From: Candidatus Levyibacteriota bacterium | Lineage (GTDB): Bacteria > Patescibacteriota > Microgenomatia > Levybacterales > UBA12049 | Reading direction: 5' to 3' | DNA: 64,000 nucleotides | Assembly: GCA_027459745.1 (NCBI GenBank) | Contig: DAIDHL010000002.1 | Coordinates: 125,656 to 189,655 of the forward strand | In this document: piece by piece, positions 1,981 through 64,000 of the stretch | Position numbering within the stretch: position 1 is the stretch's first letter | Layout of the letters: every line of letters begins with the position of its first letter | The notes under the pieces: model-generated | Seen by the model: the letters and a program-made list of their open reading frames with translations, nothing else | Databases searched by the model: none | Told to the model about the DNA's origin: nothing | Made by a program: the position numbers and the translations under genes

Positions 1981-2640
1981 ATGGAAAATAAATATTTAAT
2001 TATTGATTTTGATAGTACATTTGTACAAGTAGAAGCTCTCGATGAGTTGGCAAAAATTGTACTTAAAAACCATCCGAAACAAAATGAACTCGTCAAACAA
2101 ATAGAACAAATTACTAATTTAGGAATGGAAGGTAAATTATCGTTTGCGGAATCATTAAAAAGACGGTTGGATTTGTTTCAACCAAGTGAAGAGCAAATAG
2201 ATAATTTGATTGAATTATTAAATACAAAGATTAGTAAATCTATTTTAGCAAATAGAAATTTTTTTCAACAATATAAACAGCAAATTTATATAATTTCGGG
2301 TGGATTCCAGGAATATATTTACCCGGTGGTAAAAGAATCTGGGTTGGCGATGAGTCATATACTAGCCAATCAGTTCTTATTTGACCAGAATGGCAATTAT
2401 CTGAGTTATGACAAAACCAAACCTTTAAGTCAAACAGGAGGGAAAATCATAGCAGTCAAACAATTGAGATTACCTGGAGAAGTTATCGTGATTGGTGATG
2501 GATATACAGATTACGAAATAAAGCAGGCTGGACTGGCTAAGACTTTTTATGCGTTTACCGAAAATATTTCACGCGAAAAAGTGAAAAAATTAGCTGATAA
2601 AGTCATGGCATCCTTTGATGAGGTTATAAGCAATATATGA
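1981..2640 (+). CDS. serB: phosphoserine phosphatase (HAD family)
   Basis: N-terminal DxDST motif (IIDFDSTF) and a C-terminal GDGxxD (VIGDGYTD) HAD signature. Overlaps serA by ATGA. Confidence 0.75.
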   Translation: MENKYLIIDFDSTFVQVEALDELAKIVLKNHPKQNELVKQIEQITNLGMEGKLSFAESLKRRLDLFQPSEEQIDNLIELLNTKISKSILANRNFFQQYKQQIYIISGGFQEYIYPVVKESGLAMSHILANQFLFDQNGNYLSYDKTKPLSQTGGKIIAVKQLRLPGEVIVIGDGYTDYEIKQAGLAKTFYAFTENISREKVKKLADKVMASFDEVISNI

Positions 2641-3599: not shown

Positions 3600-3674
3600 A
3601 TCGGTGCGTGGCAATCTGTTTTTGACAAGATTGCTTCGTCGTCCTTCGACAAGCTCAGGATTCCTCGCAATGAC
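3579..3674. repeat. small GC-rich structured element with perfect 11-bp terminal inverted repeats (GTCATTGCGAG ... CTCGCAATGAC), copy A
   Basis: IR arms at 3579-3589 and 3664-3674 flank 74 bp rich in CGAC/GACAAG repeats. The left arm overlaps the last codons of serA. Related motifs occur at 12588 and 30431. Confidence 0.45.
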
Positions 3675-3686
3675 AATTCAATAAAA

Positions 3687-4766: not shown

Positions 4767-4803
4767 TTTAAGATTAATAATTGTATATTTTATATTTAAT
4801 ATA

Positions 4804-4832
4804 TTGACAATTAATATTAATGAGAATATATT
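4804..4832 (+). promoter_or_regulatory. promoter TTGACA - 17 nt - TATATT for the glutamine synthetase gene
   Basis: TTGACA at 4804-4809 and TATATT at 4827-4832. The ORF-track start at 4804 is the TTG of this -35 box, so the true start is probably the ATG at 4846. Confidence 0.4.
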
Positions 4833-4845
4833 GAATATATTCTTT

Positions 4846-6276
4846 ATGGATAGTACATCTAAGTTAAAAAACTTTTTAGAAATTCCCTACGACGAACTTG
4901 AAGAACTCAATTTAAAAGCTAAATCCAATAGTTTAGATCCGCAAAAAACCATCGCAGAGAGAAGAGCGTATTTAGAAAAAGAGAAAAGAATTAAAGCCAT
5001 TACACTTTGTTTTACAGATATTGAAGGTCGATTCCATATGCTGGATTACGATAAAAAATTCCTGCTTGCTTCTAGTGATAATTTAACTTTTGATGGATCT
5101 TCCATTCGTGGCTTCACCGTTCAGAGCGAATCAGATTTGCGTCTAAGTATTGATTGGAGCAGTTTCACTTGGTTGCCCTCAGATATTTTTGGTCCAGGTA
5201 AAGTGATTATGTTTGCCAATATCATGACACGTGATCGTAAACAATATGCTTCCGATTTTCGTGGTTTATTACAAGAATACATCCAGAAACTATTGGAGAA
5301 AGAGGATCTGACGGCCAATGTTTCGGCTGAGATAGAAGGTTTTATTGTGGAAGGAACAAATGCCGAACAAGCCTTTGAGGAAAACAGAGGTTTTAGTTTG
5401 ATATCCACCGGTGGATATTTCCATTCTTTGCCGATGGATAAACTACGTCAATTTATCGATGCCAGTGCTGAAGCACAAAGAGCCATGGGTTTTCAAAATG
5501 AAAAGGATCACCCGGAAGTAGCGCCGTCTCAATTCGAAATGAATTTTTCTTACCGTAGCTCCATTGCCGCGTGTGATCAGATTCAGTTATACAAACTAAT
5601 TTGTCGACAAATTGCCAATAAAATGGGTATGACAGCTACTTTTCTGCCGAAACCAATTATGGGAATTAATGGCAGTGGTATGCATACTAACCTATCCTTG
5701 GCCAAAGGTAAAAAGAATATTTTCTATGACAAAGCGGGCAAAGAAAATCTATCTCCTATAGCTTGGGATTTTATCTCTCGTGTGTTAAATCATGCCCCGG
5801 AGTTATGTTTGATTCTGAATTCCAGTGTGAACGCTTACCGAAGATTGGATCCCCACTTTGAAGCTCCCAATCAAATTAAAGTTTCCCCAGTAGATCGTGG
5901 ATCAATGATCAGAATTCCGGTAGGCAATGAAAGATCAGCACGCATTGAAGTACGCTCAGTAGCTCCCGATGCCAATCCTTATTTACTTGTTTATTCTTTG
6001 CTGAAAGCTGGTTTAACTGGTAAGAAATTGCAAAGAGATGCTGATAAACGTGAAAGGCTACGATTCTTGCCTGGAACAATCAATGAAGCACTGAGATTCT
6101 TCAAGGGTAGTGATTTTATAACTGAAATTTTGGGCGAAGAAAACAAAGAGAAATTCAGTCATTTTAAACAATTAGTAGCCGACCGTAGTCCTAGAGAGCT
6201 GGGAACTAAGATTAAGAATTCAGAAATTATTTTTCATCACGAAGTGACCAATCAAGCCCTCTGGAATACTTTTTAA
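4846..6276 (+). CDS. glnA: glutamine synthetase (GlnA-like)
   Basis: Beta-grasp DGSS motif (FDGSSIRGF) and catalytic NGSGMHTNLS motif. Start moved to the first ATG (MDSTSKL) downstream of the promoter. Confidence 0.8.
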   Translation: MDSTSKLKNFLEIPYDELEELNLKAKSNSLDPQKTIAERRAYLEKEKRIKAITLCFTDIEGRFHMLDYDKKFLLASSDNLTFDGSSIRGFTVQSESDLRLSIDWSSFTWLPSDIFGPGKVIMFANIMTRDRKQYASDFRGLLQEYIQKLLEKEDLTANVSAEIEGFIVEGTNAEQAFEENRGFSLISTGGYFHSLPMDKLRQFIDASAEAQRAMGFQNEKDHPEVAPSQFEMNFSYRSSIAACDQIQLYKLICRQIANKMGMTATFLPKPIMGINGSGMHTNLSLAKGKKNIFYDKAGKENLSPIAWDFISRVLNHAPELCLILNSSVNAYRRLDPHFEAPNQIKVSPVDRGSMIRIPVGNERSARIEVRSVAPDANPYLLVYSLLKAGLTGKKLQRDADKRERLRFLPGTINEALRFFKGSDFITEILGEENKEKFSHFKQLVADRSPRELGTKIKNSEIIFHHEVTNQALWNTF

Positions 6277-6286
6277 GAAATAAGAA

Positions 6287-7189
6287 TTATTTTGTGGAGA
6301 GAATATAGATACCCATAAAGATTAGTAAGATAGAAATTATTTTAATACCTAAAGTCTTTCTAGAAAGATCTTCTTTAATAATATGAGGGAACCAAACTGA
6401 AAGTATTATTCCTTCAACTAGAACAAAAAACGGTTGTACATCCGTTACTACCGCAACTAAGGCGACTGGTGCCAGTAAAGAGGCATAGAGATAAACAAAG
6501 CCAGCCAACCTATCGAGGATTTCATCGAGAGACAAAAAAAGCCAAACATTCTTTTGAAAAGTACGAATTTCCAAGAAAAAACTACGTCTAAGTCTGGGTA
6601 CTAATAGAAGAATTATTGCTCCGAACATACCACCTAATTCTTGGTAGGCAAAAGAGAGCCAATAATCATTGGGAACATGGGCATATTTAAATAGAATAGA
6701 TATTCCTGAGGCAAGTAGGCAGGCAAGCATCATATACCAGAACGACTTCCTTTGTCTAAATATACCTTCGGGACTTTTTTCCAGACTCAGTAAAATACCT
6801 CCTGTTAAAATAAAAATAAAAGACAAGAGCTGGAATTGGCTCAATTGTTCATGTAATAAAAAATAAGAGAGAATAAGTACAAAAATTGATAGAAATTGAA
6901 AAAGTGGAATTACTCGCGATGCATCATCGAGTGCTAAGGCTTTAAAATAGGGAATTAAATAAAACAATCCTAAAATACCGGAAATTATAAGTATTAGGAT
7001 TTGAGTTATATTTAGCAATACAAAACCATGTATTAAAAAAATAAGCAAAGATATAAAAAAAGATAATATTCCTCCTAGAATAACCAGATTAAGTGGATTT
7101 TTGATTTTTTTGTCAATCAAGAATTTCTCTAAATAATTAGTAAAACTATAAAGAAGAGGAGCTATTAGGGACAACAATATCCAACTCAT
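6287..7189 (-). CDS. DMT/EamA-like multi-pass membrane transporter
   Basis: 300 aa, about 10 predicted TM helices, duplicated-half architecture. Confidence 0.45.
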   Translation of the reverse strand: MSWILLSLIAPLLYSFTNYLEKFLIDKKIKNPLNLVILGGILSFFISLLIFLIHGFVLLNITQILILIISGILGLFYLIPYFKALALDDASRVIPLFQFLSIFVLILSYFLLHEQLSQFQLLSFIFILTGGILLSLEKSPEGIFRQRKSFWYMMLACLLASGISILFKYAHVPNDYWLSFAYQELGGMFGAIILLLVPRLRRSFFLEIRTFQKNVWLFLSLDEILDRLAGFVYLYASLLAPVALVAVVTDVQPFFVLVEGIILSVWFPHIIKEDLSRKTLGIKIISILLIFMGIYILSTK

Positions 7190-7861: not shown

Positions 7862-8332
7862 ATGATAGTTGAAACGAAATTAGGCCAAATAGAACCAAGA
7901 AATAAGCTACCAGTAAACCCTGGGAATCAGGTTTTAATGCCAGTAGAGTTTTTACGTAGTCTTTTAACAGATATTAGTCGGACTCGAGTAACTGATCCTG
8001 TATGGATAGAAAATTATAACATTGGTACCGGACATGGACCAGGAAGGATATTGCAGGAAGCATTGATAGCTTCTACGTGGGGAGCCGATGTAAGATTGCA
8101 ACCGAATTGGGCTATGGATCTACCTCTTGAAGAAAGTTCTCACATAGATGATGACATTAACCAGGCCGTTTTGCGTAAATCGTTTGCTGACCTGGAGGAT
8201 GCGGGAGGCATTGTTATACGTAGAGATCTTCCTTTTGGCCGGTTCACTAGAAGGGTACCTTTTAAATACATGCAACATAATCACAGCAAAGTTATAGTTG
8301 CTGGAGAGGTGGGATATATAGGAGGAATTTAA
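7862..8332 (+). pseudogene. N-terminal half of a PLD-superfamily protein ending in a degenerate HKD-like motif; likely frameshifted relative to the next ORF
   Basis: Ends ...HNHSKVIVAGEVGYIGGI*, which resembles HxKx4Dx6GSxN with D replaced by G. The downstream ORF (frame +1) is open from 8322 and overlaps the end of this ORF. Confidence 0.4.
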
Positions 8333-13477: not shown

Positions 13478-14639
13478 ACATTTGTTTAAATTTGTGATTG
13501 CAAAAAGCTGCAGCTAACAGCGTTACGATAGGAACTGCTAGAAGTAACCCGGCAGTTCCACCAATAGCTTTAATAATCTCCTCACTAAAAGATTCACTAT
13601 TAATAATCACCCAGTAAGGCCATTGTTGCGGGTTAAATAAAAAGAAAATTAAAATGGCTAGTCCTGAGCCTGCGAATGCCAAAACAAGCGTATTAATAAT
13701 AGATATCGCATGTTCACGCCCAATCATAAAACTGCGTGCGAAAAGTTGCTTAAAAGACAAAGTTCTATTTTGGTTGGCTAACTCAAATACTGTATGGGCT
13801 TGAGTAACAGTCACATCGTTTAGCGCACCTAAGGTACTGATGATAATGCCTCCTAGTAAAATTCCTTTGAGACTAATAATACTGGTAGTGCCGAAATGTA
13901 AGTCTGTAGCATCAGAATTACCATAACCGTTTAGCAAAGTAAATTGTACTACCCAAATTGCGATTAAGTAAGTTATAAGTAAAGAAACTAAAGTAGAAAA
14001 AAGAGCTATGGTAGTTTGACGGGATATACCATGTGCAACATAAGTAGTTAAAAATAAAATTATAACCGATCCAATCATCGAAACTGTTAACGCATCAGCT
14101 CCGGCAATAATTTGCGGAATAATGTAACCAAAAATAACTGCCAGACTAATAATTAGTCCAAGAATTGACCCTAGTCCTTTCCAGCCCGCAATCAACATAA
14201 TTAAAATAAAGAAAGCAACCACGGCAATTATTATTTGTGGTAATCGATATTTATCGTTGACATAATATTGTATATGTCCACTAGAATCTGTTTCTTTGTT
14301 TAAAATTATAGTTTGTCCTACTTGCATACGTAAATCAGCCACATGTTGAGGATCGTAATTGACTTGGAGCTGTTTGCCTTTGCTTTGTCCATCAATCAAT
14401 TGTACGGTCATGTTCTGTGTACCGTTTGTGGCATTAGTTATATTTATAACAAGTGCTCTGAGATAAGTAATGTTTGGAGCACTAGCCGCACTTGGAGTAG
14501 AGGAAGTCTCTAAAGGTACCACTTGTGGCATGGCAGCTGAAGAAGAGATAGTAGAAGCATTTGCAGATATTGTAAATTTAAAACCTGTAAGTAGAATGAA
14601 AATTAAAATAACGATGACTTTTTTCATAACAAAGTACAC
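13458..14639 (-). CDS. multi-pass membrane protein with an N-terminal extracytoplasmic domain (YibE/F-like)
   Basis: Signal/TM, about 130-aa exported domain, then about 8 TM helices. The family assignment is tentative. Confidence 0.4.
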   Translation of the reverse strand: MYFVMKKVIVILIFILLTGFKFTISANASTISSSAAMPQVVPLETSSTPSAASAPNITYLRALVINITNATNGTQNMTVQLIDGQSKGKQLQVNYDPQHVADLRMQVGQTIILNKETDSSGHIQYYVNDKYRLPQIIIAVVAFFILIMLIAGWKGLGSILGLIISLAVIFGYIIPQIIAGADALTVSMIGSVIILFLTTYVAHGISRQTTIALFSTLVSLLITYLIAIWVVQFTLLNGYGNSDATDLHFGTTSIISLKGILLGGIIISTLGALNDVTVTQAHTVFELANQNRTLSFKQLFARSFMIGREHAISIINTLVLAFAGSGLAILIFFLFNPQQWPYWVIINSESFSEEIIKAIGGTAGLLLAVPIVTLLAAAFCNHKFKQMFGKILQ

Positions 14640-14773: not shown

Positions 14774-15247
14774 TTACTGAGATGGACTAGGTTGATTACC
14801 ATTCATCATCATACCCCCTCTGGGCCCGCCAAAAGTTGGATTTAGCGCAACATTTTCGGCTGTGACCGAACCATCAGAATTACTTGTGCCTAGAACTATT
14901 ACTACAGAACCTGTTTTTAAGTCACTAGTTGAACCGGTAGTTTGCTTGGAAATATTAACACTGCTTGGTAATATAACGATTTTACTGCTACCATCAGCTA
15001 ATTTTACTGTCATAGTGTCATTACTCACACTGAGGATTTGACCACGTACTGCTTGTGTGTTGGAAGTAGGGGAGCCTGCACCGCCCGCAAATTGTCTATA
15101 CATTCCAGCTCCAGCTCCAGCTCGTCCTGCGAAACCAACTCCTCTCTGGTTTTGTTGATATTTCATACCAGCATAAAAGCCGACTGCTGCCACTATAATG
15201 ACAAGGATAACTACGAGAATTATGTGGTTATTTTTCAATGTATTCAC
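14774..15247 (-). CDS. hypothetical membrane-anchored Gly-rich protein; last gene of the MacAB-type operon
   Basis: N-terminal TM, then a GAGAG-rich segment. Co-directional and tightly linked to the permease gene. Confidence 0.45.
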   Translation of the reverse strand: MNTLKNNHIILVVILVIIVAAVGFYAGMKYQQNQRGVGFAGRAGAGAGMYRQFAGGAGSPTSNTQAVRGQILSVSNDTMTVKLADGSSKIVILPSSVNISKQTTGSTSDLKTGSVVIVLGTSNSDGSVTAENVALNPTFGGPRGGMMMNGNQPSPSQ

Positions 15248-15294
15248 CCCCTCTCTGAATAAGTTTCTAAATTACAAAATTTTGCCCAGATTTT

Positions 15295-16506
15295 TTATTC
15301 ATATCTCAGAGCCTCGATGGGACTCAAACTTGCAGCCTTCTGGGCTGGATACCAACCAAAAAGTATACCTATACCTCCAGATACACCAATGGCTAAAAAG
15401 ATAGCGGAAGTAGATAGTACAAAGGGTAAACTGACCAAAGAAGAGACAATGGCAGAAACTAGAATGCCTAAAATCATACCCAGAAGTCCACCAATTATAG
15501 TAAGTAAAACTGCCTCGACTAAGAATTGGTAAATAATAGTCTTTTTCTTGGCGCCTAAGGCTTTTCTTAAACCGATTTCTCTAATTCTCTCAGTTACCGT
15601 GACTAACATTATATTCATAATCCCGATTCCTCCTACAATCAACGATATAGCAGCAATACCAGCTAGTAAACTTGTTAAAGTCCCGGTTACTGAGCTAGCG
15701 GCGCTCAAAATTTGTTGTTGGGACAAAATACTAAAATCAGCCTGAGTTGGATCAGTAATATGATGACGAGCTAGCAAAAAATATCCAACTTGATTTTCCG
15801 CGGTTGTCATAACATCTTGTGATTTAGCAGAGACAGTAATCGTATTTAAATACGAAGATCCGCTAACTTCCTGCTGATCAGTTAATAGCGGTATATAAAC
15901 TGTTGCATCAGGATTTTGGAATCCACTTCCTCCTTGTGAGGCAGTTACCCCAATTACCGTAAGGGTAGTGTTATTTATTCGTAGTTTTTGACCAATCGGG
16001 TCACCAGTAAACAAATCGGAGGCGACTTGTGCCCCAATGACAGCCACCTTACTAAGTGACTGAGAATTGCTGATAAAAGATCCTTCTTGCATTTGAATAT
16101 TATGGACAATGGCATAGGAAGGAGTTACACCTAAAATTGAATCATTTTCATTATTACCGTTGGCAATGACTTGTCCTCGAGATGAGACTTCAGGGGATAC
16201 TGCGCTAATCTCCGTCAATTGGGGAGAGTTAGCCATAGCGGTAGCATCAGCATTGGTAAGTGTTTGATTACTTCCTGCTGCCTGACGGACTCCCCCTGTA
16301 GTCTGCGCACCGGGAATAATTGTCAAAGTATTGGCACCTAGTGATTCAATTTGTTTCTGTACTGATTGTTGACTTGCTTGTCCTAATGAAATCAGGGCAA
16401 TAACCGAGCCGATACCGATGACGATGCCTAATGTGGCTAAGCCAGTTCTTAATTTATTTAAGGTTAATGCTTCTACAGCTGATAAAAATAGTTCTAGTAA
16501 ATCCAT
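15295..16506 (-). CDS. ABC transporter permease, MacB/FtsX family
   Basis: N-terminal TM, large periplasmic MacB_PCD-like domain, C-terminal FtsX 3-TM bundle. Confidence 0.8.
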   Translation of the reverse strand: MDLLELFLSAVEALTLNKLRTGLATLGIVIGIGSVIALISLGQASQQSVQKQIESLGANTLTIIPGAQTTGGVRQAAGSNQTLTNADATAMANSPQLTEISAVSPEVSSRGQVIANGNNENDSILGVTPSYAIVHNIQMQEGSFISNSQSLSKVAVIGAQVASDLFTGDPIGQKLRINNTTLTVIGVTASQGGSGFQNPDATVYIPLLTDQQEVSGSSYLNTITVSAKSQDVMTTAENQVGYFLLARHHITDPTQADFSILSQQQILSAASSVTGTLTSLLAGIAAISLIVGGIGIMNIMLVTVTERIREIGLRKALGAKKKTIIYQFLVEAVLLTIIGGLLGMILGILVSAIVSSLVSLPFVLSTSAIFLAIGVSGGIGILFGWYPAQKAASLSPIEALRYE

Positions 16507-16571
16507 ATTTTGAAAAAGTAAAGCTTTAAGGGTAAGGGTAAAGTTATTCTATCTTCGTTTACGTTTAACCC

Positions 16572-17255
16572 TTAGCCTTTATTTTTCTTGTCGTTTATTA
16601 ATTGCCCATCTTTAATTGTAATAATCCTTTTGGCATTGGCTGCAATATCCGGTTCGTGTGTAATCATGACGATAGTATGACCTTGTTTATTTAAGTCTTT
16701 GAAGATATCCATAATTTCATTAGCTTGAGAAGATGCGAGATTACCAGTAGGTTCATCTGCCAATAAAATTGCTGGATTCATGGCCAGTCCACGTGCTATA
16801 GCTACTCTCTGCTGTTGTCCTCCAGAAAGTTGGTTGGTAGTATGTTCAAGACGATCACCTAGTCCAACCAGAGTTAAGTATTTTTTTGCTCGTTCTTCTC
16901 GCTCTGCTTTGGGAATACCAGCATACATCATAGGTAACATGACGTTTTTCATAGTACTACGGCGGGGAAGTAGATTGAATGCCTGGAAAACAAAACCAAT
17001 TTTCCTATTTCTGATATCCGCCAGTTCATCATCAGTTAATTTACTAACATCTTCTCCATCAAGAATATATGTACCAGATGTAGGAGTGTCCAATGCTCCG
17101 ATCATGTGCATTAAGGTAGACTTACCGCTACCAGATGGTCCCATAATAGCCACAAACTCACCTCTGGCAACGTCAAAAGACACATCAGCTAATGCTATGG
17201 TCTCTGTAGTACCGACAAGGTATTTTTTGTATAGATGTGAAACATGAATTAACAT
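16572..17255 (-). CDS. ABC transporter ATP-binding protein (MacB/LolD type)
   Basis: Walker A GPSGSGKST, signature LSGGQQQRVAIARGL, Walker B ILLADEPTGNL. Confidence 0.9.
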   Translation of the reverse strand: MLIHVSHLYKKYLVGTTETIALADVSFDVARGEFVAIMGPSGSGKSTLMHMIGALDTPTSGTYILDGEDVSKLTDDELADIRNRKIGFVFQAFNLLPRRSTMKNVMLPMMYAGIPKAEREERAKKYLTLVGLGDRLEHTTNQLSGGQQQRVAIARGLAMNPAILLADEPTGNLASSQANEIMDIFKDLNKQGHTIVMITHEPDIAANAKRIITIKDGQLINDKKNKG

Positions 17256-29553: not shown

Positions 29554-29641
29554 GGAGAGTGGGCCGGACGGTAAGGCACAGGTTTGCTAAACCTGCAGGG
29601 TCTTAAACAATCCTGAGTGGGTTCGACCCCCACACTCTCCG
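29554..29641 (+). tRNA. tRNA-Ser (anticodon GCU), class II with a long variable arm
   Basis: Acceptor GGAGAGT/ACTCTCC with discriminator G. Anticodon loop UUGCUAA. Variable arm CAGGGUCUUAAACAAUCCUGAG. T-arm GUGGG-UUCGACC-CCCAC. No encoded CCA. Confidence 0.85.
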
Positions 29642-35453: not shown

Positions 35454-35460
35454 CGAAGAG

Positions 35461-35882
35461 TGGAGATGTCGAGCTATGAACTCGAGTCCGAAAAATGTTA
35501 ATAAAAACGTCTACAAGCGTAGTTTATCTTTGAAATGTCCTTTTATTCTTTTCCGATAAACAGGAAAATAAAAGTAAGAACTCTTTTTAACCAATAATAG
35601 GGGAATTCAATCCCTATTATCTGTTTCCCAACTGTGTTATGCCCATATCATCCCGTTGGGGAAGACAATATGAACAGGCTTCTCAAACCTTATGCAGCGA
35701 GTGCATATGCAGGAGCGAATCCTGCGTTTGAGCGACCACCGTCAGCCAACACCGAGGTGGTGAACTGGCGGATGCGTTGGCTAATGCCATCAGCATTTAT
35801 ATTTTGATTCTATTTTACGGCTGTGAATCATCGCCGGCTTGCAGTTGTTAAAGAGCACTTAACGTCGAATCAAATCATCCCC
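35461..35882 (-). ncRNA. ssrA: tmRNA (SsrA), standard one-piece, about 422 nt
   Basis: The 5' end GGGGAUGAUUUGAUUCGACG matches the tmRNA 5' consensus. The 3' end carries a T-arm UCGAG-UUCAUAG-CUCGA followed by CAUCUCC-A. The acceptor GGGGAUG/CAUCUCC contains a G3-U70 wobble (the alanine identity element). An internal ORF ends ...GCU CCU GCA UAU GCA CUC GCU GCA UAA (..APAYALAA-stop). It lies directly downstream of smpB on the same strand. Confidence 0.85.
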
Positions 35883-55229: not shown

Positions 55230-55427
55230 TTTTAAGCAAAGAATTAACACCCATAATAATTTTCTTACATTTTTTATTACTTAACTGAAGCTGAATAGTT
55301 GGGCATAGATAAAAAAGATACATTCTGATCTATTGACTGTTTACCAGTAGTGCAATATCCTATTTGTGGACACTAAATAGATGAATTCACAATTTGGAGT
55401 TCAGGGTTCAAAATAAGGTAGGTAATT

Positions 55428-55919
55428 TTGAATTCTAAATTACTTATGCACTGCCCATATTGCGGATATATAAAATCTGAGGTGATTGAGACAAGAGATA
55501 ACGAAGACAACGACACTATTCGACGCAGAAGGCTTTGTTTGCAATGTGACAAGAGATATACAAGTTACGAAAGAGTTGAAAATATTCATTTGACTGTAAT
55601 TAAGAGAGACGGGAAAAAAGAACCGTATAATATTGAAAAACTACGTTCGGGAATAATTAAAGCCTGTGGTAAGACAACAATCGGTATTGAAGAAATAAAC
55701 AAGTTGGTGGCAGATGTTACGAGAGAATTAAGAAGTGGAGATAGTGTAGAAATTGATAGCAGATTGATTGGTAAATTAGTAGCAAAGCGTCTTAAAGCAT
55801 TGGATAAAGTAGCATATATTCGTTTTGCTAGCGTATTCAAACGTTTTGTAGATGCAGAAGATTTTGAAAAAGAATTACAAGTATTTAGTAAAAGGAATAA
55901 ATTAATTAAAAAAAACTAA
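55428..55919 (+). CDS. nrdR: transcriptional repressor NrdR (zinc ribbon + ATP-cone)
   Basis: CPYCG...CLQCDKR zinc ribbon followed by an ATP-cone. The TTG at 55428 is preceded by AGGTAGGT at SD distance. An alternative ATG at 55446 (MHCPYCG) gives the canonical NrdR N-terminus. Confidence 0.8.
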   Translation: MNSKLLMHCPYCGYIKSEVIETRDNEDNDTIRRRRLCLQCDKRYTSYERVENIHLTVIKRDGKKEPYNIEKLRSGIIKACGKTTIGIEEINKLVADVTRELRSGDSVEIDSRLIGKLVAKRLKALDKVAYIRFASVFKRFVDAEDFEKELQVFSKRNKLIKKN

Positions 55920-55920
55920 T

Positions 55921-58371
55921 ATGATAAAACTTGATGGTATCAGAGGAAAAGTATTTTTAGATCGTTATGCTCTTAAAGATAAAGAGGGTAATTTGATAGA
56001 ACATACTCCAGAAGAAACTTGGAGAAGAGTCGCCAGAGGAATTGCTCAAAGCGAAAAAGCCAAGGATCGAGAGTACTGGGAGGAAGAATTTTATAAAGCC
56101 ATGGCAGATTTCAAATTTGTGCCAGGTGGTCGTATTCTGTCTGGCGCAGGTACAGGTTTTCAGGTAACATATTTCAATTGTTTTGTTATTCCCTCACCTA
56201 AAGATTCTCGCCATGGTATTTTGGAATCACTTGGTCAACTAGTAGAAATTCAGGCACGCTCGGGAGGGGTAGGTTTAAATCTTTCTTCGTTACGTCCTAA
56301 GGGTGCTCGTGTAAAAAAGGTCAATGGTACTTCTTCTGGGCCCGTTAATTGGGCTACGCTTTTCTCAGTCGCTACTCATGATATTGTGCAGCAAGGTGGA
56401 TCACGTCGTGGTGCAACCATGTTGATGTTAAATGACTGGCATCCAGATATTGAAGAATTTATTACCGTCAAAGAAGATTTGACAAAAATCAGTGGTGCTA
56501 ATTTATCAGTCTGTATTTCAGATGCGTTTATGGAGGCTGTGAAAGCAGATAAAAGTTGGGAGTTAGTTTATCCTGATACTAGTGATCCAGATTACGATGA
56601 AAAATGGAATGGTGAATTGGACCAATGGAAAGCCTTGGGTAAAGAAGTTAAAGTATTCAAGACTGTAAAAGCGCGTGAATTGTGGGATCTTATCTGCACA
56701 GCTGCTTGGAGATCAGCCGAGCCAGGTCTACATTTCCTAGAGAGATCCAATAAGCGTTCTAATACTTGGTATTTCGAAAGATTGGTCGCTACTAACCCTT
56801 GCGGAGAACAACCTCTCAGTGGTTGGGCTGTTTGTAATCTAGGAGCTATGAATTTGTCAGCATATGTTAAAGATGCAGATTTAGCTAATGAGAAAGCTGG
56901 TTGGTTTGATTACAAGTCTTTTGCTCAGGATGTAAAAGTCGCCATGCGTTTTATGGATAATGTCATTGACCAGACACACTACTTTTTCCCAGAAAATGAG
57001 AAGGTTGCTAAGGATATTCGCAGAACTGGTCTGGGTATCATGGGGTTAGGAGATACTTTAATCAAAATGCACATTCGTTATGGTTCTGAGGAATCAATCC
57101 CCGTAGTAGAAAAGATCTTTCAAACCTTGCGTGATAGTGCATACGAAGCTTCTAGTGATATAGCTGCAGAGAAGGGTAGTTTCCCCAAATTTGATAAAGA
57201 TAAATATTTACAAGGTTACTTTATAAAAGCTTTGCCCAAGAAGTTACGTGACAAGATTCGTGATCAAGGAATTCGCAATGGAGTATTGCTTACTGTAGCT
57301 CCCACTGGTACCACAAGTTTAGTGGCTGGCGTATCGTCGGGTATTGAGCCTGTCTATGAGTTTTCTTTTTTGCGCAAATGGAGAGGTGGAGAAGAAGTGA
57401 TGTATCATCCGCTTTATGACGCCTGGATCAAAAATCATCCAACAGCAGCTAAACCAGATTATTTTTGTAGTACCAATGATTTAACTCCTTTAGAACATGC
57501 CAAGGTGCAGGCTGTGGCCCAAGAATATATTGATTCTAGTATCTCAAAAACGGTTAATGCTCCTAAAAATCATACAGTCGATGATGTGAAGACACTCTAT
57601 ATGTTGGCCTATGATATGGGTTTGAAAGGTATTACTTATATGCGGGATGGTTCACGCCAAGGTGTGTTGGAAAGAATAGAAGAGAAAAAAGAAGAAAAGA
57701 AAGAAGAAGTTAAACCTGCTATTCCAGCTACTCCGCGGGTAGCTCGTCCGATGATGCTGATGGGTACCACTTACAAAACTGAAAGTCCAGTTGGTAATAC
57801 TTACATTACCATCAATCACGATGAGAAGAGTGATCCATTTGAAGTATTTATTAGTAATGGAAAATCTGGATCAGATGTTTCAGCTATGGCAGATGCTTTA
57901 GGTAGAATGATTTCCTTTATTCTGCGTATTCATAGTTCTGTGCCTCAACGTGAACGTGTACGCGAAATAGTGTCTGAATTGACAGGTATTGGCGGAGCAC
58001 GTACTGTTGGCTTTGGACCTAATCGTGTACGCTCATTACCTGATGCAGTAGCCAAGATTTTGGCTCGACATTTTGAGTTTAGAGTTAACGGAAAAGTAGA
58101 AGATAAAGAAGTCATTGCCGCGGTAAAAGCCGAGCCCATTCTGGCTGCTTCGGCTAGCTTAACTAATGGACATGCTGCAGTAATAACTCAGCCAGTAGAT
58201 ATGCCAGCTACACCAGTAGCTCAACAATTGACTTTGACGGCTGATGCTCCAGTACAAATGGAACATAGTACAACTAATTTATTTGATATGTGTCCTGAAT
58301 GTCAGACATATAGTTTTGCTTACGAAGAAGGTTGCAAAAAATGCTATAGCTGTGGCTATAGTGAGTGTTAA
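55921..58371 (+). CDS. nrdJ: adenosylcobalamin-dependent (class II) ribonucleotide reductase NrdJ
   Basis: FVPGGRILSGAGTG and TNPCGEQPL active-site motifs. C-terminal CxxC...CxxC zinc ribbon. 2 nt downstream of nrdR. Confidence 0.9.
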   Translation: MIKLDGIRGKVFLDRYALKDKEGNLIEHTPEETWRRVARGIAQSEKAKDREYWEEEFYKAMADFKFVPGGRILSGAGTGFQVTYFNCFVIPSPKDSRHGILESLGQLVEIQARSGGVGLNLSSLRPKGARVKKVNGTSSGPVNWATLFSVATHDIVQQGGSRRGATMLMLNDWHPDIEEFITVKEDLTKISGANLSVCISDAFMEAVKADKSWELVYPDTSDPDYDEKWNGELDQWKALGKEVKVFKTVKARELWDLICTAAWRSAEPGLHFLERSNKRSNTWYFERLVATNPCGEQPLSGWAVCNLGAMNLSAYVKDADLANEKAGWFDYKSFAQDVKVAMRFMDNVIDQTHYFFPENEKVAKDIRRTGLGIMGLGDTLIKMHIRYGSEESIPVVEKIFQTLRDSAYEASSDIAAEKGSFPKFDKDKYLQGYFIKALPKKLRDKIRDQGIRNGVLLTVAPTGTTSLVAGVSSGIEPVYEFSFLRKWRGGEEVMYHPLYDAWIKNHPTAAKPDYFCSTNDLTPLEHAKVQAVAQEYIDSSISKTVNAPKNHTVDDVKTLYMLAYDMGLKGITYMRDGSRQGVLERIEEKKEEKKEEVKPAIPATPRVARPMMLMGTTYKTESPVGNTYITINHDEKSDPFEVFISNGKSGSDVSAMADALGRMISFILRIHSSVPQRERVREIVSELTGIGGARTVGFGPNRVRSLPDAVAKILARHFEFRVNGKVEDKEVIAAVKAEPILAASASLTNGHAAVITQPVDMPATPVAQQLTLTADAPVQMEHSTTNLFDMCPECQTYSFAYEEGCKKCYSCGYSEC

Positions 58372-58424
58372 GTAAATGAGAATTTATTAATAATTAGAAA
58401 TTGTAAATTAAAAATTAAATGGTT

Positions 58425-58593
58425 ATCTAGGTAATAGAGGTGTAATTCCTCATCAGTGCCGCTACTGTGACCCCACTTCGCGTAAAGTTACGCGGAGCAG
58501 GGAAGACAGAAAACTAGGTAATTTTATCTTTATCCCGAGCAGGAATTTTTGTTTCTCATCAGATAAAAGTTCTCGCTTAGGAGAACTTTTTTT
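58425..58593 (+). promoter_or_regulatory. cobalamin (AdoCbl) riboswitch, compact variant, with expression-platform hairpin
   Basis: In order: GGUGUAAUUCC (GGUGnAAnUCC), GCCGCUACUGUGA (CCGCnACUGUnA), CCCCACUU (B12-box-like CCACU), and GGGAAGAC (GGGAAG). A hairpin AAGUUCUC-GCUUAG-GAGAACUU plus U7 overlaps the AGGAGA SD just before the ATG at 58594. Confidence 0.6.
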
Positions 58594-59145
58594 ATGAGAA
58601 TATTACTTCGAGCAAAGCAGTTAATAAATAACGTAATAAAACTAAACCCACTGTTATATGTTGGATTATTTGTAGCTGCTCGTTTATTGCCACATCCGGC
58701 TAATCTGTCGCCAGTTGATGCCATGGTACTATTTGCCGGGGTCTATTTAAATAGACGTTATGCGTTAATAGCTCCTTTGGTAGCCTTATTTATCTCCGAT
58801 ATGTTTTTAGGGTTTTACTGGCAAATGCCCTTCGTTTACGGGAGCTTTATCATTACTGGTTTATTGGGTTTATGGCTTAGACATCATAAGTCTATTACTA
58901 ATATCTTAGGTTTTTGTTTATTGTCGTCAGTACAATTTTTTGTTATTTCTAATTTTGGTGTTTGGTTAACTACTAGTTTTTATATTCATACTTTGAGTGG
59001 TCTAATTAATTGCTATGTGATGGCATTACCATTTTTCCGCAATAGTCTGATAGGTGATCTGGTTTATACAAGCTTATTCTTTGGAAGTTATGAGTTTATA
59101 GTTTTTAAGCTGATTAAGTACAAGCAAGTCTTAAATAAGGAATGA
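58594..59145 (+). CDS. small 5-6 TM transporter component, ECF S-component/BtuM-like (candidate cobalamin uptake protein)
   Basis: 183 aa, all-membrane. Sits between a cobalamin riboswitch and a PduO-type adenosyltransferase. Confidence 0.5.
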   Translation: MRILLRAKQLINNVIKLNPLLYVGLFVAARLLPHPANLSPVDAMVLFAGVYLNRRYALIAPLVALFISDMFLGFYWQMPFVYGSFIITGLLGLWLRHHKSITNILGFCLLSSVQFFVISNFGVWLTTSFYIHTLSGLINCYVMALPFFRNSLIGDLVYTSLFFGSYEFIVFKLIKYKQVLNKE

Positions 59146-59212
59146 CGTAATAGGTATAAGGGTTAAGAGAATTTCCTTATACCCTTACTACTAACTACTT
59201 AGACCTATTTTT

Positions 59213-59776
59213 ATGAAAACCAAGATTTATACCAAAACAGGAGATAAAGGTAAAACATCATTAGTCGGTGGTAAAAGAGTAAACAAATTCGATTTACGAG
59301 TGGAAACCTATGGCACGGTGGATGAGCTTAATTGTGCTACTGGAATCGTTATCGCTCAAATTAAAAATTCAAAATTAAAAATTAAAAATGAAAAATCATT
59401 AATTATAAGTTATTTGGAAGAGATTCAGAATGATTTATTTACTATTGGATCAACATTAGCAAATCCCAATAATCCAGCATTACCACAATTAGAAAAGCGC
59501 ATTAAAGAATTGGAAAAGATAATTGATCAAATGACTGAACATTTACCCGAATTAAAAAATTTTATTTTACCTGGGGGTAGTCTGACTGGTGCACAATTAC
59601 ATTTGGCTAGAACTATTTGTCGAAGAGCTGAACGCAGGGTTGTTGAATTAAAACAGACAGAAGAAATTGATGATTTAATTGTAAGTTATTTCAATCGTTT
59701 ATCAGATTTTCTATTTACCGCTGCCAGATATGCCAATCATCTGAAAAATAAAAAAGAAACAATTTGGAGAACTTAA
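59213..59776 (+). CDS. PduO-type ATP:cob(I)alamin adenosyltransferase
   Basis: N-terminal IYTKTGDKGKTSL signature of the PduO family. Confidence 0.85.
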   Translation: MKTKIYTKTGDKGKTSLVGGKRVNKFDLRVETYGTVDELNCATGIVIAQIKNSKLKIKNEKSLIISYLEEIQNDLFTIGSTLANPNNPALPQLEKRIKELEKIIDQMTEHLPELKNFILPGGSLTGAQLHLARTICRRAERRVVELKQTEEIDDLIVSYFNRLSDFLFTAARYANHLKNKKETIWRT

Positions 59777-59779
59777 GAT

Positions 59780-60955
59780 ATGCTGCAAGCAGTTGAGATG
59801 GGGCGACAGTTGCCTCAAAATATTGAGATTCAAAAAAATAATCATTTATCGTTCAATCTATCCCATGAGAGAGATCGTGCCTTGGAAGCAAGTCGTACAG
59901 GCAATAGAGAACAAATGAAATTAGCTCGTGATGGCTTTATACAAAACACGCAATATTGGGCCAAAGAATATATAGGTGGCATACAAACTACACATTATCT
60001 TTGGCACATTGTTGATGATGGAGGTAAGACTCGTTTATATCATCCCTCTTTCGGTTATGCGGATGATGCTTCGCAGCGCGCTTTAGAACAGAATGTACCT
60101 GAGTATGAAAAAAAGAGAAGGCAAGTTGAACATAACGTGACTAAGCAGTTTTCTCAAGTATTAAAAGATGCCCACAAAGGCGATGTTTTCGTCTGGACTA
60201 GTCCTCCTCCTGAAGTAAAGGGAATTGAAAAAGGAGTATATGGTGGATATACTATGACTCACTTATATGAGGTCGATGAGGTTACACTTAATGAAGGCGG
60301 AAAAACAAAATCTGTCAAGATTCTCAAAGGTAGAGATGTAAAAAATTACTTAAAAAATGAAGAACATAAAGAGTTACTCGAGACTTTAGGTGAACAAAAA
60401 ATTTTTGAAGGTATACCATCTTCTCTGGATCTTTTAGCAACTTTAGTAAAAGTTAAATATGGAACTTCCAGTCGTGATGTAGAAACAAAAATAAAACAAA
60501 TAGAAAAATATTTAGGACCGTCAGAAAATGAAACAAAAGTTAAAGAATTTGAAAAAATTTTGCAGGATAATGAATGGATGTTAGAACGTATATTCCAAAT
60601 GTTGATTTTGGAAGATGTTAATATTTCACAAGCTTTTATAACTAATTATTTTAAACAATACGCACAAGCAATTGAGCTGGCACAAAGCAAAGGTTCAGAT
60701 AAAACATTGGACGCACTGGGTTTTGTAGCACATGTCGCGGCAGGTGGCAGTTGTGGCGCAGGTGTGGGATTTGGAGATGCAGCTAAAAATGCTTTTGGTT
60801 ATCAGCCCACTGCGCTGGCCGCAAGCTTAAGTGGTGAAAGAACCTTAAAGTGTAAAGAATGTCCCTTATGTAAGAGCAAAGATATAGAGGCAGTTATTAA
60901 AGATGGTAAAATTCAATGTCCTTCTTGTATGGGTTCTGCCGAATATGCTTGTTAG
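59780..60955 (+). CDS. hypothetical 391-aa protein with C-terminal 4-Cys zinc ribbon; last gene of the riboswitch-controlled operon
   Basis: No family assignable. C-terminus CKECPLC...CPSC. Starts 3 nt after the PduO stop. Confidence 0.5.
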   Translation: MLQAVEMGRQLPQNIEIQKNNHLSFNLSHERDRALEASRTGNREQMKLARDGFIQNTQYWAKEYIGGIQTTHYLWHIVDDGGKTRLYHPSFGYADDASQRALEQNVPEYEKKRRQVEHNVTKQFSQVLKDAHKGDVFVWTSPPPEVKGIEKGVYGGYTMTHLYEVDEVTLNEGGKTKSVKILKGRDVKNYLKNEEHKELLETLGEQKIFEGIPSSLDLLATLVKVKYGTSSRDVETKIKQIEKYLGPSENETKVKEFEKILQDNEWMLERIFQMLILEDVNISQAFITNYFKQYAQAIELAQSKGSDKTLDALGFVAHVAAGGSCGAGVGFGDAAKNAFGYQPTALAASLSGERTLKCKECPLCKSKDIEAVIKDGKIQCPSCMGSAEYAC

Positions 60956-61005: not shown

Positions 61006-61653
61006 ATGGACGATAGTACACAACAAAATAATAATTCACAGCAGGCTGCCAATGGTTCATCTGATGATCAGGTAACTCTAGTCCCTGTAGCAGATAATGC
61101 ACAACATACAAGAGAACAAGTTCTCTTAGAACAGAGAGATGAAGATGCAGCTACTCAACCATCTTCTACTACAGTAAGCCAAGATGATCGTATTAAGCAA
61201 CTTAATATAGCACAATCTCAAGCCAAACCTGCGCAATCTTATCATCCAGTGAGTTCGTTGCATAAAGAACAAGCACCAGTTCGTGCAAACGAGACAATGC
61301 GTTCCTCAGAGCCAGGAGAAAGTCAACCAGAAATAAGCGCTGAGTTGAAGGAAATTGGTATAGAAGAATCACAGGATGAAGAACAGCTCAAACTATCTGC
61401 AGAGCAAGAATTAGCCGGTTTGGAACCTGCTAAAGAATCTGTTCCTATGAACTCGCATATAACAGCTAATATGAAGTTCCCTCAACAGCCATTTACAGCC
61501 AATGAGGCGGATGATATAATCAAAACCACTTCACCCGATGAGTCGAAACACTGGCTGGCTGTATTGGTGCTATCGATTCTACACAAACTTCATATTAAAG
61601 AATTGCGTAAAAAGGAAGAATCAAAGTTGTCCTTAGTAGAAAAAGCTGCTTGA
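61006..61653 (+). CDS. acidic Gln/Glu-rich hypothetical protein with hydrophobic C-terminal helix
   Basis: Low-complexity Q/E/S-rich N-terminal region. C-terminal WLAVLVLSILHKLHI. Confidence 0.45.
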   Translation: MDDSTQQNNNSQQAANGSSDDQVTLVPVADNAQHTREQVLLEQRDEDAATQPSSTTVSQDDRIKQLNIAQSQAKPAQSYHPVSSLHKEQAPVRANETMRSSEPGESQPEISAELKEIGIEESQDEEQLKLSAEQELAGLEPAKESVPMNSHITANMKFPQQPFTANEADDIIKTTSPDESKHWLAVLVLSILHKLHIKELRKKEESKLSLVEKAA

Positions 61654-61660
61654 TTAAATT

Positions 61661-64000
61661 ATGGATGTGGTAAGTTCATTTCTAGCTGGAGATCCGACAG
61701 GACTATTAATAGGTCTAGTGGTTTTTTCTGTGGTTTTTTTATTGTTTTTCGCTTTAGTAGCCGTTTTGGGTTATATATTTTTCTTATGGTATAAATATAG
61801 ACATCGAGAAGAAGAAGCTTTAAATTCAACTTTACTTCAGGTAGCAGTCCCACGCGATAATGAGATTAAAATAGATGCAGCAGAACAGCTTTTTTCTAGT
61901 TTGTCAGCTATAAAAAAAAGTGGGAGATTGCATTTTCTACATCCTCAACCGCATATATCTTTCGAAATAGTAGGTATGCCGGGTGATATACGTTACTATA
62001 TTCATGTTCCCAATAAAATTCGTGATTTTGTAGAAAAACAGATTAATGGTTCTTATCCCGATGCGCAAATTGTTGAAGTTGGAGACTCAGCTGCACATCA
62101 GAGAACAGATTCTGTTTTAGGCGGTGAGTACAATATTTTTTCTGAAACTGGTAAAGTCGCTTATGCGTCTTTGAAGCTCAAAGCTGCATCCTATTATCCA
62201 ATTAAAGTATTTAAAGATTTCCCGGTAGATCCGATGGCATCGATTACTTCTACATTAGCTAAAATGGGTGAGGGTGAAGGAGTAGCTATACAAGTCTTAA
62301 TAAGTCCGGCGGACAAGCATTGGAAATCGCAAGGAAAAGCTTATATTTCTAAAACTAAAAAAAGTGAGTCTAATCCTGAGACAGCTAAGTATTCAGTAGA
62401 TAGTAAAGAGTTAGAAGGGATTGAAAATAAGATTTCTAAACCAGGTTTTGATACAACGATTAGAGTAGTTGTATCTTCTAGCTCTACAGAAGCTGCCAAT
62501 ATGCATTTGTCCAATATTATCAATGGTTTTAGTCAATATAGTGGCTCAAATGAATTTAAGAAACTTAAAATACGTATGAAAGGTGCATTTATTACAGATT
62601 TTGTTTATCGCTATTGGCCGCTTTGGGATCATACTTCTGTGCTATCTAGTGAAGAGCTGGCAACGATTTTCCATTTTCCCAATAAAGGCGTAGCAACTCC
62701 TGGAATTCATTGGGTTAATTCTAAAAGAGCTCCTGCGCCTTCTAATTTGCCGCCTAGTGGTTTGTTTATTGGGAAAAGTGTATTTAGAGGTATCAGCAGA
62801 CCAATTTATATGAGTAAGTTTGATCGTCAGCGGCATATGTATATTATTGGTAAAACAGGTACTGGAAAATCTGAGTTTTTGAAAGAAATGATTATGCAGG
62901 ATATTCGAGCAGGAGAGGGATTAGCCGTGGTGGATCCGCATGGGGATTTAGTCGAAGATATTTTGCAGCTTATACCTCCGCAAAGAGCTGAAGATGTGAT
63001 TTTATTTGATCCCTCAGATATTGAGCGGCCGATGGGTATGAATATGTTAGAAGCGCAATCGGAAGATCAGAAACATATGGTAGTTACGTCAATTATTGGT
63101 TTGATGTATAAATTATTTGATCCGAACAAAACTGGTATTATTGGCCCCAGATTTGAGCATGCTGTACGTAACGCTATGTTGACAGTGATGGCTGAACCTG
63201 GGAATACATTTATTGAAGTTATGCGTGTATTGACTGACCCTTCATTTGTGCAGGAATTATTGCCTAAAGTTGATGATCCGATTGTTCGTCGTTATTGGAC
63301 AGATCAGATTGCGCAGACTAGTGATTTTCACAAATCTGAAGTTTTGGATTATATTACTTCTAAGTTTGGACGTTTCGTTACTAACAAGATGATTCGCAAT
63401 ATAATAGGACAGTCGTACAGTGCTTTTCAATTTAGAGATGTGATGGATAACAGAAAGATTTTATTAATTAATCTTTCTAAGGGACGCATTGGCGAAGAGA
63501 ATTCTAGTTTCTTGGGTTTAATCATTGTGCCCAAGATTCTGGTAGCCGCGATGAGTCGACAGGATATACCTAAAGAACAACGTAAAGATTTTTATTTATA
63601 TGTTGATGAGTTCCAAAATTTTGCTACACCTGATTTTGCGCAAATTTTATCAGAGGCAAGAAAGTATAAACTTAATTTGACAGTTGCCAATCAGTTTATT
63701 GGACAGATGGATGAAGAAATTAAGAACGCTATCTTTGGTAATGTGGGAACTATTGTATCTTTCCGTGTGGGCGTAACTGATGCCAATTATTTACAGCATG
63801 AATTTACACCCACTTTTACTGAAGCTGATTTAATTAATATCGATCGATTCAATGCATATATTAGGACCGGTGTAGATGGTGAACCTGCCCCACCATTTTC
63901 TTTAGACTTAACAAAAGATACTTCACAAGAAGAGAAAATGAAGAACTCTCGTGTAGCTGAATTAGTTAAAGAACTTTCACGACTTAAATATGGTAGAGAT
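61661..64000 (+). CDS. membrane-anchored VirB4/TraE-like (AAA_10/DUF87, FtsK-HerA superfamily) secretion/conjugation ATPase; 3' end beyond window
   Basis: Open frame from the ATG at 61661 to the window end. Not in the ORF track because there is no stop within the window. N-terminal TM, about 400-aa N-domain, Walker A IIGKTGTGKSEF, Walker B/DE LYVDEFQNF. Confidence 0.6.
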   Translation, partial: MDVVSSFLAGDPTGLLIGLVVFSVVFLLFFALVAVLGYIFFLWYKYRHREEEALNSTLLQVAVPRDNEIKIDAAEQLFSSLSAIKKSGRLHFLHPQPHISFEIVGMPGDIRYYIHVPNKIRDFVEKQINGSYPDAQIVEVGDSAAHQRTDSVLGGEYNIFSETGKVAYASLKLKAASYYPIKVFKDFPVDPMASITSTLAKMGEGEGVAIQVLISPADKHWKSQGKAYISKTKKSESNPETAKYSVDSKELEGIENKISKPGFDTTIRVVVSSSSTEAANMHLSNIINGFSQYSGSNEFKKLKIRMKGAFITDFVYRYWPLWDHTSVLSSEELATIFHFPNKGVATPGIHWVNSKRAPAPSNLPPSGLFIGKSVFRGISRPIYMSKFDRQRHMYIIGKTGTGKSEFLKEMIMQDIRAGEGLAVVDPHGDLVEDILQLIPPQRAEDVILFDPSDIERPMGMNMLEAQSEDQKHMVVTSIIGLMYKLFDPNKTGIIGPRFEHAVRNAMLTVMAEPGNTFIEVMRVLTDPSFVQELLPKVDDPIVRRYWTDQIAQTSDFHKSEVLDYITSKFGRFVTNKMIRNIIGQSYSAFQFRDVMDNRKILLINLSKGRIGEENSSFLGLIIVPKILVAAMSRQDIPKEQRKDFYLYVDEFQNFATPDFAQILSEARKYKLNLTVANQFIGQMDEEIKNAIFGNVGTIVSFRVGVTDANYLQHEFTPTFTEADLINIDRFNAYIRTGVDGEPAPPFSLDLTKDTSQEEKMKNSRVAELVKELSRLKYGRD

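Follow-up and report, generated by a model that had tools for sequence, protein, structure and literature searches.

The DNA analyzed here (the window) is a stretch of 64,000 nucleotides from contig DAIDHL010000002.1 of a Candidatus Levyibacteriota bacterium. The locus of interest, toward its 3′ end, consists of a cobalamin riboswitch and three genes, the last of which encodes a protein of an undescribed family that we refer to as X. The riboswitch aptamer (58406–58550, + strand) and its expression platform (58565–58590, +) precede a DUF6580 membrane protein of 183 amino acids (aa) (PF20221; 58594–59145, +), a PduO-type ATP:cob(I)alamin adenosyltransferase of 187 aa (PF01923 and TIGR00636; 59213–59776, +), and the 391-aa X (59780–60955, +), whose ATG lies 3 nt past the pduO stop codon. 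All three open reading frames (ORFs) were intact, and X was interrupted by neither a stop codon nor a frameshift; the ORF coordinates and the 3-nt pduO–X spacing agreed with those of a first-pass annotation of the window, made from the sequence alone. The adenosyltransferase matched PF01923 along the whole profile (positions 1–171 of 171; 203.5 bits, cut-off 24) and TIGR00636 (PduO_Nterm) with 192 bits (cut-off 108.45). On the 5′ side, nrdR (55422–55916, +; Pfam Zn_ribbon_NrdR and ATP-cone) opens a conserved nrdR–nrdJ–riboswitch–salvage block, and nrdJ (55921–58371, +; TIGR02504, Ribonuc_red_lgC, and TSCPD) encodes a class II adenosylcobalamin-dependent ribonucleotide reductase (RNR), scoring 588.6 bits against the TIGR02504 equivalog (cut-off 399.95). 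The PduO and NrdJ identities assigned in the first-pass annotation were thereby upheld. The best explanation of the block at 58406–60955 is a B12-repressed salvage operon of a bacterium of the candidate phyla radiation (CPR), with NrdJ as the B12-dependent enzyme of the block and the presumed consumer of the adenosylcobalamin (AdoCbl) made by the operon.

X had been described in the first-pass annotation as having no recognizable family, and profile searches of family libraries and the PDB bore this out. No family was found for X in Pfam, NCBIfam, PADLOC, or PHROGs, the 85 aligned members carried no Pfam domain save stray zinc-ribbon matches, and sequence and profile searches of the PDB returned generic zinc-ribbon matches only. 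Literature searches on DUF6580, on CPR cobalamin riboswitches, and on PduO partners with a zinc ribbon turned up no description of X. The family has not been described before and has no fold relative in the PDB. Among 5.8 billion proteins, a word-indexed search recovered only 13 relatives, and a profile search of 1.84 billion cluster representatives recovered about 130, nearly all of them 350–520 aa long and matched over their full length; scanning genome and metagenome contigs with close-clade X patterns added only one and two loci, and the diverse alignment A2 contained no stretch conserved enough to serve as a pattern. Two deeply divergent subtypes were homologous from end to end (hhalign probability 99.9%, E 1.5e-36, 353 columns). 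The closest named relative of the locus is a Candidatus Levyibacteriota metagenome-assembled genome (MAG) of the Patescibacteria/Microgenomates, in which NrdJ is 94% and X 70% identical to the window proteins. It is plausible that X is restricted to small-genome B12 auxotrophs, given this one named MAG and CPR-like neighborhoods, in which DUF5667, DUF8128, and smpB/transfer-messenger RNA (tmRNA) synteny are the CPR-typical neighbors of the X loci.

Conservation in X was counted over the 85 aligned members, with residues in window numbering. The most conserved features lie toward the C terminus, where Cys325, in a [GN][SG]CGxGxGF loop (GGSCGAGVGF in the window, 60743–60772, +; Cys325 codon at 60752–60754), was present in 85 of 85 sequences. 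It is followed by a candidate zinc ribbon (Cys361, Cys364, Cys380, and Cys383) and the C-terminal Cys391 (together 60860–60952, +). Three of the four ribbon cysteines (361, 380, and 383) were each found in 85/85 members, and Cys364 was found in 84/85. At least one additional Cys after the loop Cys occurred in 83 of the 85, usually six to eight residues past the last zinc ligand and most often as the final residue. In the N-terminal 320 aa no Cys is conserved, and many members lack Cys there altogether; conserved positions in this part include Glu63 (84/85), Arg113 (79/85, plus four Lys), Glu/Asp117 (82/85), Ser141 (84/85), and Pro142 (80/85). The motifs HYLWHIVDDGG, VFVWTSPPPE, and CKECPLC...CPSC, which the first-pass annotation had pointed out, are all present in X.

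An AlphaFold model of X built from the 85-sequence alignment (predicted local distance difference test, 85.9; predicted template modeling score, 0.79) was confident. In it, residues 24–305 form a helical hairpin, an antiparallel sheet of five strands flanked by helices, and a four-helix domain. Past residue 305 came a flexible Gly-rich segment bearing Cys325, a disordered linker, and the ribbon. The family profile matched eL43/L37Ae zinc ribbons in the PDB (E 2.8e-4), β strands were predicted at residues 354–388, there were two invariant CxxC knuckles, and both ribbon flanks were predicted to be flexible; the C-terminal module is predicted to be a C4 zinc ribbon. A rubredoxin-like iron center was also weighed for the ribbon and judged less likely, as the profile matches ribosomal zinc ribbons and the knuckle spacing is highly variable. 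A glycyl-radical-like or self-cleaving (Ntn or pyruvoyl) character of the GGSCG loop seems improbable, there being no matching motif (no Arg is conserved two residues upstream). X contained no signal peptide, transmembrane segment, or P-loop and is therefore expected to be cytoplasmic and not an ATPase. No flavin, NAD, or Fe-S binding motif or fold was detected in it.

To place X in its genomic setting, loci with enough flanking DNA were recovered, giving 13 independent loci, each holding X (the window, L001, L002, L003a, L003b, L005, L006, L007, L009, L013, L014, L016, and L018). X followed PduO and/or the DUF6580 transporter in 13/13 loci, and where the contigs were long enough, the gene order was nrdR–nrdJ–riboswitch–(DUF4430)–(DUF6580)–pduO–X. 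The nrdR–nrdJ order of the window recurred in L001, L002, L003, L006, L014, L016, and L018, and the linkage of X to PduO and/or the transporter extended to relatives with as little as about 22% identity to the window X. The gap between pduO and X was 3 nt in the window and L009, 1 nt in L001, and 17 nt in L014; in L013, X directly followed the transporter. The first-pass annotation had suggested X as a corrinoid-handling candidate, and the family indeed occurred in a cobalamin context at all of these flanked loci, at many of them with a dedicated B12 riboswitch. In L003, two convergent nrdJ–riboswitch–pduO–riboswitch–X–comF-like blocks flank smpB/tmRNA, an arrangement whose junction was backed by a second assembly (L004). 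The PduO proteins of this block pair are 93% identical and the NrdJ proteins 80–93%. The first NrdJ (3509–7075, +) contains an intein (Intein_splicing and LAGLIDADG); the second (14894–17199, −) has no intein, is split into two ORFs, and is about 160 residues short.

The core of the window aptamer is Cbl-II/RF01689-like and contains an extra hairpin of 32 nt; a small conserved CCCGAGCAGG hairpin comes after the aptamer. At the Rfam gathering level (clan CL00101), this element was not reported; with relaxed settings it scored 30.7 bits (E 0.011) on RF01482, below the gathering score of 50. The orthologous elements at the same position in L009 and L001 passed RF01689 (AdoCbl-II; gathering score 36.5) with 53.4 and 46.8 bits, respectively, and this gathering score was also passed in L014, L006, and L003. 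The window element aligns base for base with those of L009 and L001, save for the 32-nt hairpin, an insertion that separates the B12 box from the 3′ half of the core and to which the low Rfam score is attributed. The aptamer core (B12 box GCCxxxACUG and helices P1 and P3) is homologous to the threshold-passing elements, and paired positions covary in the riboswitch alignment (A6). A covariance model (R1), trained on nine related riboswitches of CPR origin but not on the window element, was also applied to the window and the loci (209 kb in total). R1 matched the window at 58409–58530 with 67.6 bits (E 1.3e-16), its sole match in the 64 kb.

Downstream of the aptamer, the expression platform consists of a 10-bp hairpin holding the GGAG Shine-Dalgarno (SD) sequence, then a U-run and the ATG of the transporter gene. 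A simple terminator scan missed the riboswitch terminator, and folding revealed the hairpin (ΔG −14.8 kcal/mol, z −4.4). Both hairpin arms covary in L009 and L001 with the pairing kept, and the platform is predicted to combine an intrinsic terminator with sequestration of the ribosome-binding site. Cobalamin riboswitches with a platform that terminates transcription or sequesters the SD sequence are usually OFF switches. The window element has its core sequence, its structure, and its terminator/SD platform in common with Cbl-II (RF01689) riboswitches but differs in the inserted hairpin and the sub-threshold Rfam score. The R1 match, the alignment to RF01689-passing orthologues, and the SD hairpin platform together support the riboswitch control of the operon that the first-pass annotation had assumed. 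Cbl-II-type aptamers that are otherwise nearly identical carried lineage-specific hairpin insertions at two different sites: the P3 loop in L005 (about 2095–2125), and the segment joining the B12 box to the 3′ core in the window (58472–58503) and L006 (about 7095–7140). Such insertions bring the elements below the Rfam thresholds, and they might alter ligand selectivity.

A second set of riboswitches lies directly in front of X itself. Where 120–200 nt lay between pduO and X, this stretch was in most cases another cobalamin riboswitch; the sole exception was L006, whose 137-nt spacer had no riboswitch match. In all, a complete cobalamin riboswitch stood directly 5′ of X at seven independent loci. 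The pre-X elements of L003 and L005 belong to the R1 training set, and their Rfam scores are given instead: the L003 element (7872–7943) scored 41.7 bits on RF01689, above gathering, and the L005 element (2781–2836) scored 36.1 bits against the gathering score of 36.5 (58.5 bits on R1, as a training sequence). Independent of the training set were the elements of L018 (7866–7945, 50.7 bits), L003b (14018–14107, 46.4 bits), L016 (6827–6932, 40.5 bits), and L002 (7845–7952, 38.0 bits), all scored on R1. The seventh element, in L011, scored 41.1 bits on R1 and 31.9 bits on RF01689. In this last locus (1621–6122), no pduO lies within 4.9 kb of X, which still has its own riboswitch directly ahead. 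The pre-X elements that were folded (L002, L003, L005, and L016) had the same platform as the window element: a small CCGAGCAG hairpin, a CCUC...GAGG hairpin hiding the SD sequence, a U-run, and the AUG. All 18 R1 matches in the 209 kb lay upstream of the transporter, pduO, or X, which makes X itself a predicted direct member of the B12 regulon. Regulation and synteny together link X to cobalamin unusually strongly. The L011 copy of X adjoins a Replic_Relax-family (relaxase-like) gene and ORFs without assignment, not pduO or nrdJ; this copy could be carried by a mobile element, in keeping with a cassette-like exchange of X subtypes.

The transporter gene was also examined. Its product matched DUF6580 (E 6.5e-50, 170 bits) and fell short of the cut-off for ECF-ribofla_trS (23.8 bits; cut-off 26.7). 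In phmmer searches of the PDB, it had no match; a DUF6580 profile of five orthologues matched only 6FNP_A (E 8.5e-4), over about 90 residues of the N-terminal half. The 6FNP entry is the energy-coupling factor (ECF)–CbrT vitamin B12 transporter of Lactobacillus delbrueckii (PMC5997447). Its chain A was deposited as "Membrane protein" (182 aa), and we take its CbrT identity from this size. The window protein resembles this S-component in its size of about 180 aa, its membrane nature, and its B12 context, but the similarity is marginal and confined to the N-terminal half, and no EcfA, EcfA′, or EcfT is encoded in the window. Neither EcfA nor EcfT genes were adjacent, as the first-pass annotation had stated, or present anywhere in the 64 kb, where the only ATP-binding cassette ATPases belong to a MacB-type system and a fused exporter. 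In Escherichia coli, solitary CbrT gave no B12 uptake (PMC5997447).

The first-pass annotation had left the 183-aa protein between an ECF S-component and a solitary BtuM-type transporter, and the first of these is favored. With BtuM the protein shares its occurrence as a solitary small membrane protein in a B12 locus without an ECF module, but BtuM has a cobalt-ligating Cys, whereas the DUF6580 orthologues have no conserved Cys: the two Cys of the window protein were not kept among the five orthologues, whose invariant residues were RLxPHxxN, SD, NFG, and PFFxN. As no BtuM chain was matched in the PDB either, BtuM identity was rejected. The transporter is presumably a distant CbrT-like ECF-type S-component that takes up corrinoid, and this is the one correction to the first-pass interpretation, which was otherwise supported. 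Two further observations concern this gene. In L001 (7126–7407), it is only 93 aa long with a weak DUF6580 match (E 6e-10), which may reflect truncation or decay of the S-component; that locus has its riboswitch, pduO, and X intact. In L002 (6360–6737) and L018 (6320–6709), a small DUF4430 protein, absent from the window, is encoded between the riboswitch and DUF6580. We take DUF4430 to be a B12-binding domain type related to transcobalamin, and its presence there probably fits extracellular capture of corrinoid.

With respect to function, the OFF-switch logic predicts that a shortage of B12 would turn on X along with the uptake protein and the adenosyltransferase, and since nrdJ lies outside the switch, a role in acquisition or activation of the cofactor, not in its use, is suggested. 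The transporter lacks a BtuM-type Cys, and no reductase or deligase gene was found in any of these operons, which leaves a processing step between uptake and adenosylation without an assigned gene. We propose that this step consists of removal or exchange of the upper ligand, Co(III)/Co(II) reduction, and presentation of base-off cob(II)alamin to PduO. On the basis of context and regulation, our preferred reading, which we regard as evenly balanced between right and wrong, is that X works in the cytoplasm as an accessory factor for the PduO step and acts on the corrinoid. Binding of cobalamin by X and its partnership with PduO are what we infer within this reading.

In the corresponding mechanism, scarcity of cobalamin would let the riboswitch permit transcription and translation, the CbrT-like S-component would import corrinoid, and PduO would adenosylate it to AdoCbl for NrdJ. 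The novel N-terminal domain of X would bind the corrinoid or PduO. Cys325 on its flexible Gly-rich arm and the C-terminal Cys beside the structural zinc ribbon would then act on the cobalt through Co–S ligation, displacement of the upper ligand, and/or thiol-derived electrons. Delivery of electrons by X might take Co(III) to Co(II) and so aid the formation of Co(I) in PduO; a thiol system could restore the partner Cys to its reduced state, and the base-off cofactor would pass from X to PduO. Cys325, the tail Cys, and the polar cluster of Glu63, Arg113, Glu117, and Ser141 look like a thiol-based device reaching a partner or a bound ligand. The specific thiol chemistry is less certain than the broader proposal of an accessory factor. 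X might thus stand in for CblC/CblD or for a PduS- or flavodoxin-type reductase while being unrelated to any of them. In eukaryotes, CblC (MMACHC) and CblD (MMADHC) occupy a position like the one proposed for X, between import and a PduO-type adenosyltransferase (MMAB), and the CblD cysteine forms a reported Co–S bond with cobalt, a thiol or thiolate chemistry like that proposed here. With PduS, CobR, and flavodoxin-type reductases, X shares adjacency to and co-regulation with the adenosyltransferase, and it would fill the reduction step; unlike them, its candidate redox groups are cysteines only. If the proposal holds, X offers a clonable and testable candidate for the missing processing step in organisms without known cobalamin reductases. 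It also bears on how solitary S-components work without an ECF module, would add a functional assignment to the dark proteome of CPR/Patescibacteria, and makes the operon relevant to the dependence of epibionts on host-derived cofactors for DNA synthesis.

Several points weigh against this proposal. The evidence for the function of X consists of context and regulation, and X showed no sequence or fold similarity to CblC, CblD, PduS, CobR, CobA, EutT, BtuM, or the B12-binding Rossmann domain. Dithiols have little reducing power toward the Co(II)/Co(I) couple. X also diverges far faster than its neighbors and out of step with them, which is unusual for a housekeeping enzyme: in L016 and L018, NrdJ is 74–75%, PduO 55–58%, and X 22–24% identical to the window protein, and the corresponding values in L002 are 57%, 52%, and 41%. 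The two X proteins of L003 had no BLAST similarity to each other, beside PduO copies of 93% identity. More generally, divergent X subtypes are swapped between loci at a fixed position, like exchangeable cassettes; this swapping could reflect different corrinoid substrates.

A bolder form of the preferred reading, which we advance tentatively and consider doubtful, makes X a new-fold class of cobalamin-trafficking protein. X would be a thiol-armed extractor that draws corrinoid from an ECF-less S-component by Co–S ligation, then strips or reduces its upper-ligand state and loads PduO. If true, this would explain uptake in minimal CPR cells as energized by metabolic trapping, and cobalamin would be reduced in them without flavodoxin-type partners. 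The swapped, divergent X subtypes would tune specificity to the corrinoids of different hosts.

The divergence of X also lends itself to an unlikely but serious alternative, in which X is a corrinoid-specificity or remodeling factor, or a passive binding, storage, or escort protein, without redox or ligand-exchange chemistry, and the divergent subtypes recognize different corrinoid forms. Specificity modules typically show such a pattern, in which subtypes are exchanged at a fixed position independently of how far NrdJ and PduO have diverged; two subtypes that cannot be aligned coexist in L003, and riboswitch control would fit such a factor equally well. However, no nucleotide-loop assembly genes (CobU/S/T/C or CbiB/Z) were found in the loci examined, and an absolutely invariant Cys accompanied by a second conserved Cys suggests chemistry over passive binding.

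Service to NrdJ, in which X as a reductant, adaptor, or maintenance factor would use its flexible Cys arm and ribbon to re-reduce NrdJ or its Cys-rich domain or to extract damaged cob(II)alamin from it, is a less probable explanation, which we would rate as quite improbable. X always lies in an nrdR–nrdJ neighborhood where contigs are long enough, and in the window a NrdJ with a six-Cys domain is encoded 1.4 kb upstream of X. The NrdJ C terminus (58292–58371) forms a zinc domain, CPEC-x10-CKKC-x2-C-x4-C-end, of the type whose role has been described and whose physiological electron donor was reported to be unidentified (PMC5704485). Its layout resembles that of the X tail in the window, a zinc ribbon with a Cys eight residues on as the last residue, and in both a flexible tail carries a C4 zinc site and ends with a redox-type Cys. 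The arrays nevertheless differ, C-x2-C-x9-10-C-x2-C-x2-C-x4-5-C in the NrdJ domain and C-x2-C-x15-C-x2-C-x7-C in the X tail, and X has in addition an invariant Cys 36 residues before the ribbon and is a separate protein with its own 300-aa domain. The two tails were without sequence similarity (BLASTP E 0.43), and homology between them was rejected on this value. Regulation also argues against a service to NrdJ: a factor that an active NrdJ requires would not be expected to be repressed by B12, the riboswitch does not govern nrdJ, which lies 5′ of it, and the gene to which X is coupled is pduO, not nrdJ. In L011 X is accompanied by a riboswitch only, and in L013 it comes right behind the transporter. 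Whereas the six-Cys tail of NrdJ is nearly invariant across all related loci, the ribbon type of X varies, and Cys-rich NrdJ is widespread but X is apparently CPR-restricted.

B12 riboswitches classically repress B12-independent isozymes too, and X could on this model be a B12-sparing or bypass function, for example a B12-independent deoxynucleotide route repressed like MetE or alternative RNRs. The riboswitch of its own and the proximity to nrdJ would fit. We consider this very improbable, because several loci have X closely spaced in one transcription unit with pduO and the transporter, because X bears no resemblance to RNR, nucleoside kinase, or deoxyribosyltransferase folds, and because a protein of 390 aa that lacks a nucleotide-binding motif is unlikely to replace an RNR. 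That X has nothing to do with B12 and is a fast-evolving CPR-specific protein riding in a syntenic block is hardly credible: its very high divergence, its lack of a known domain, and the generally conserved synteny of the region (DUF5667, nrdR, nrdJ ... DUF8128) would agree with it, but dedicated riboswitches stand directly ahead of X in seven independent loci, including L011, outside the syntenic block.

The genes on the 3′ side of X were also surveyed. Directly downstream, at 61006–61653 (+), lies an ORF for a 215-aa acidic, low-complexity protein rich in Gln, Ser, and Glu with a hydrophobic segment near its C terminus, for which no family was found in Pfam or NCBIfam. An ORF of similar size follows X in L009 (9237–9863), and different small ORFs occupy this place in other loci. 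The next gene (61658–64000, +), which runs off the end of the window, encodes a large TrwB/TraG/DUF87-like (DUF8128-type) coupling-ATPase homologue. This homologue is kept a few genes 3′ of X in L001, L016, and L018; L009 has an ORF matching it in size and position, and in L002 the ATPase is encoded several kb away in the opposite orientation. The gene belongs to the CPR synteny and has no obvious place in the B12 module. The only Rfam matches at gathering level in the window were an 88-nt tRNA (29554–29641, +) and a tmRNA (35458–35882, −; 112 bits), and the tmRNA/smpB pair lies just 3′ of the X locus in several relatives.

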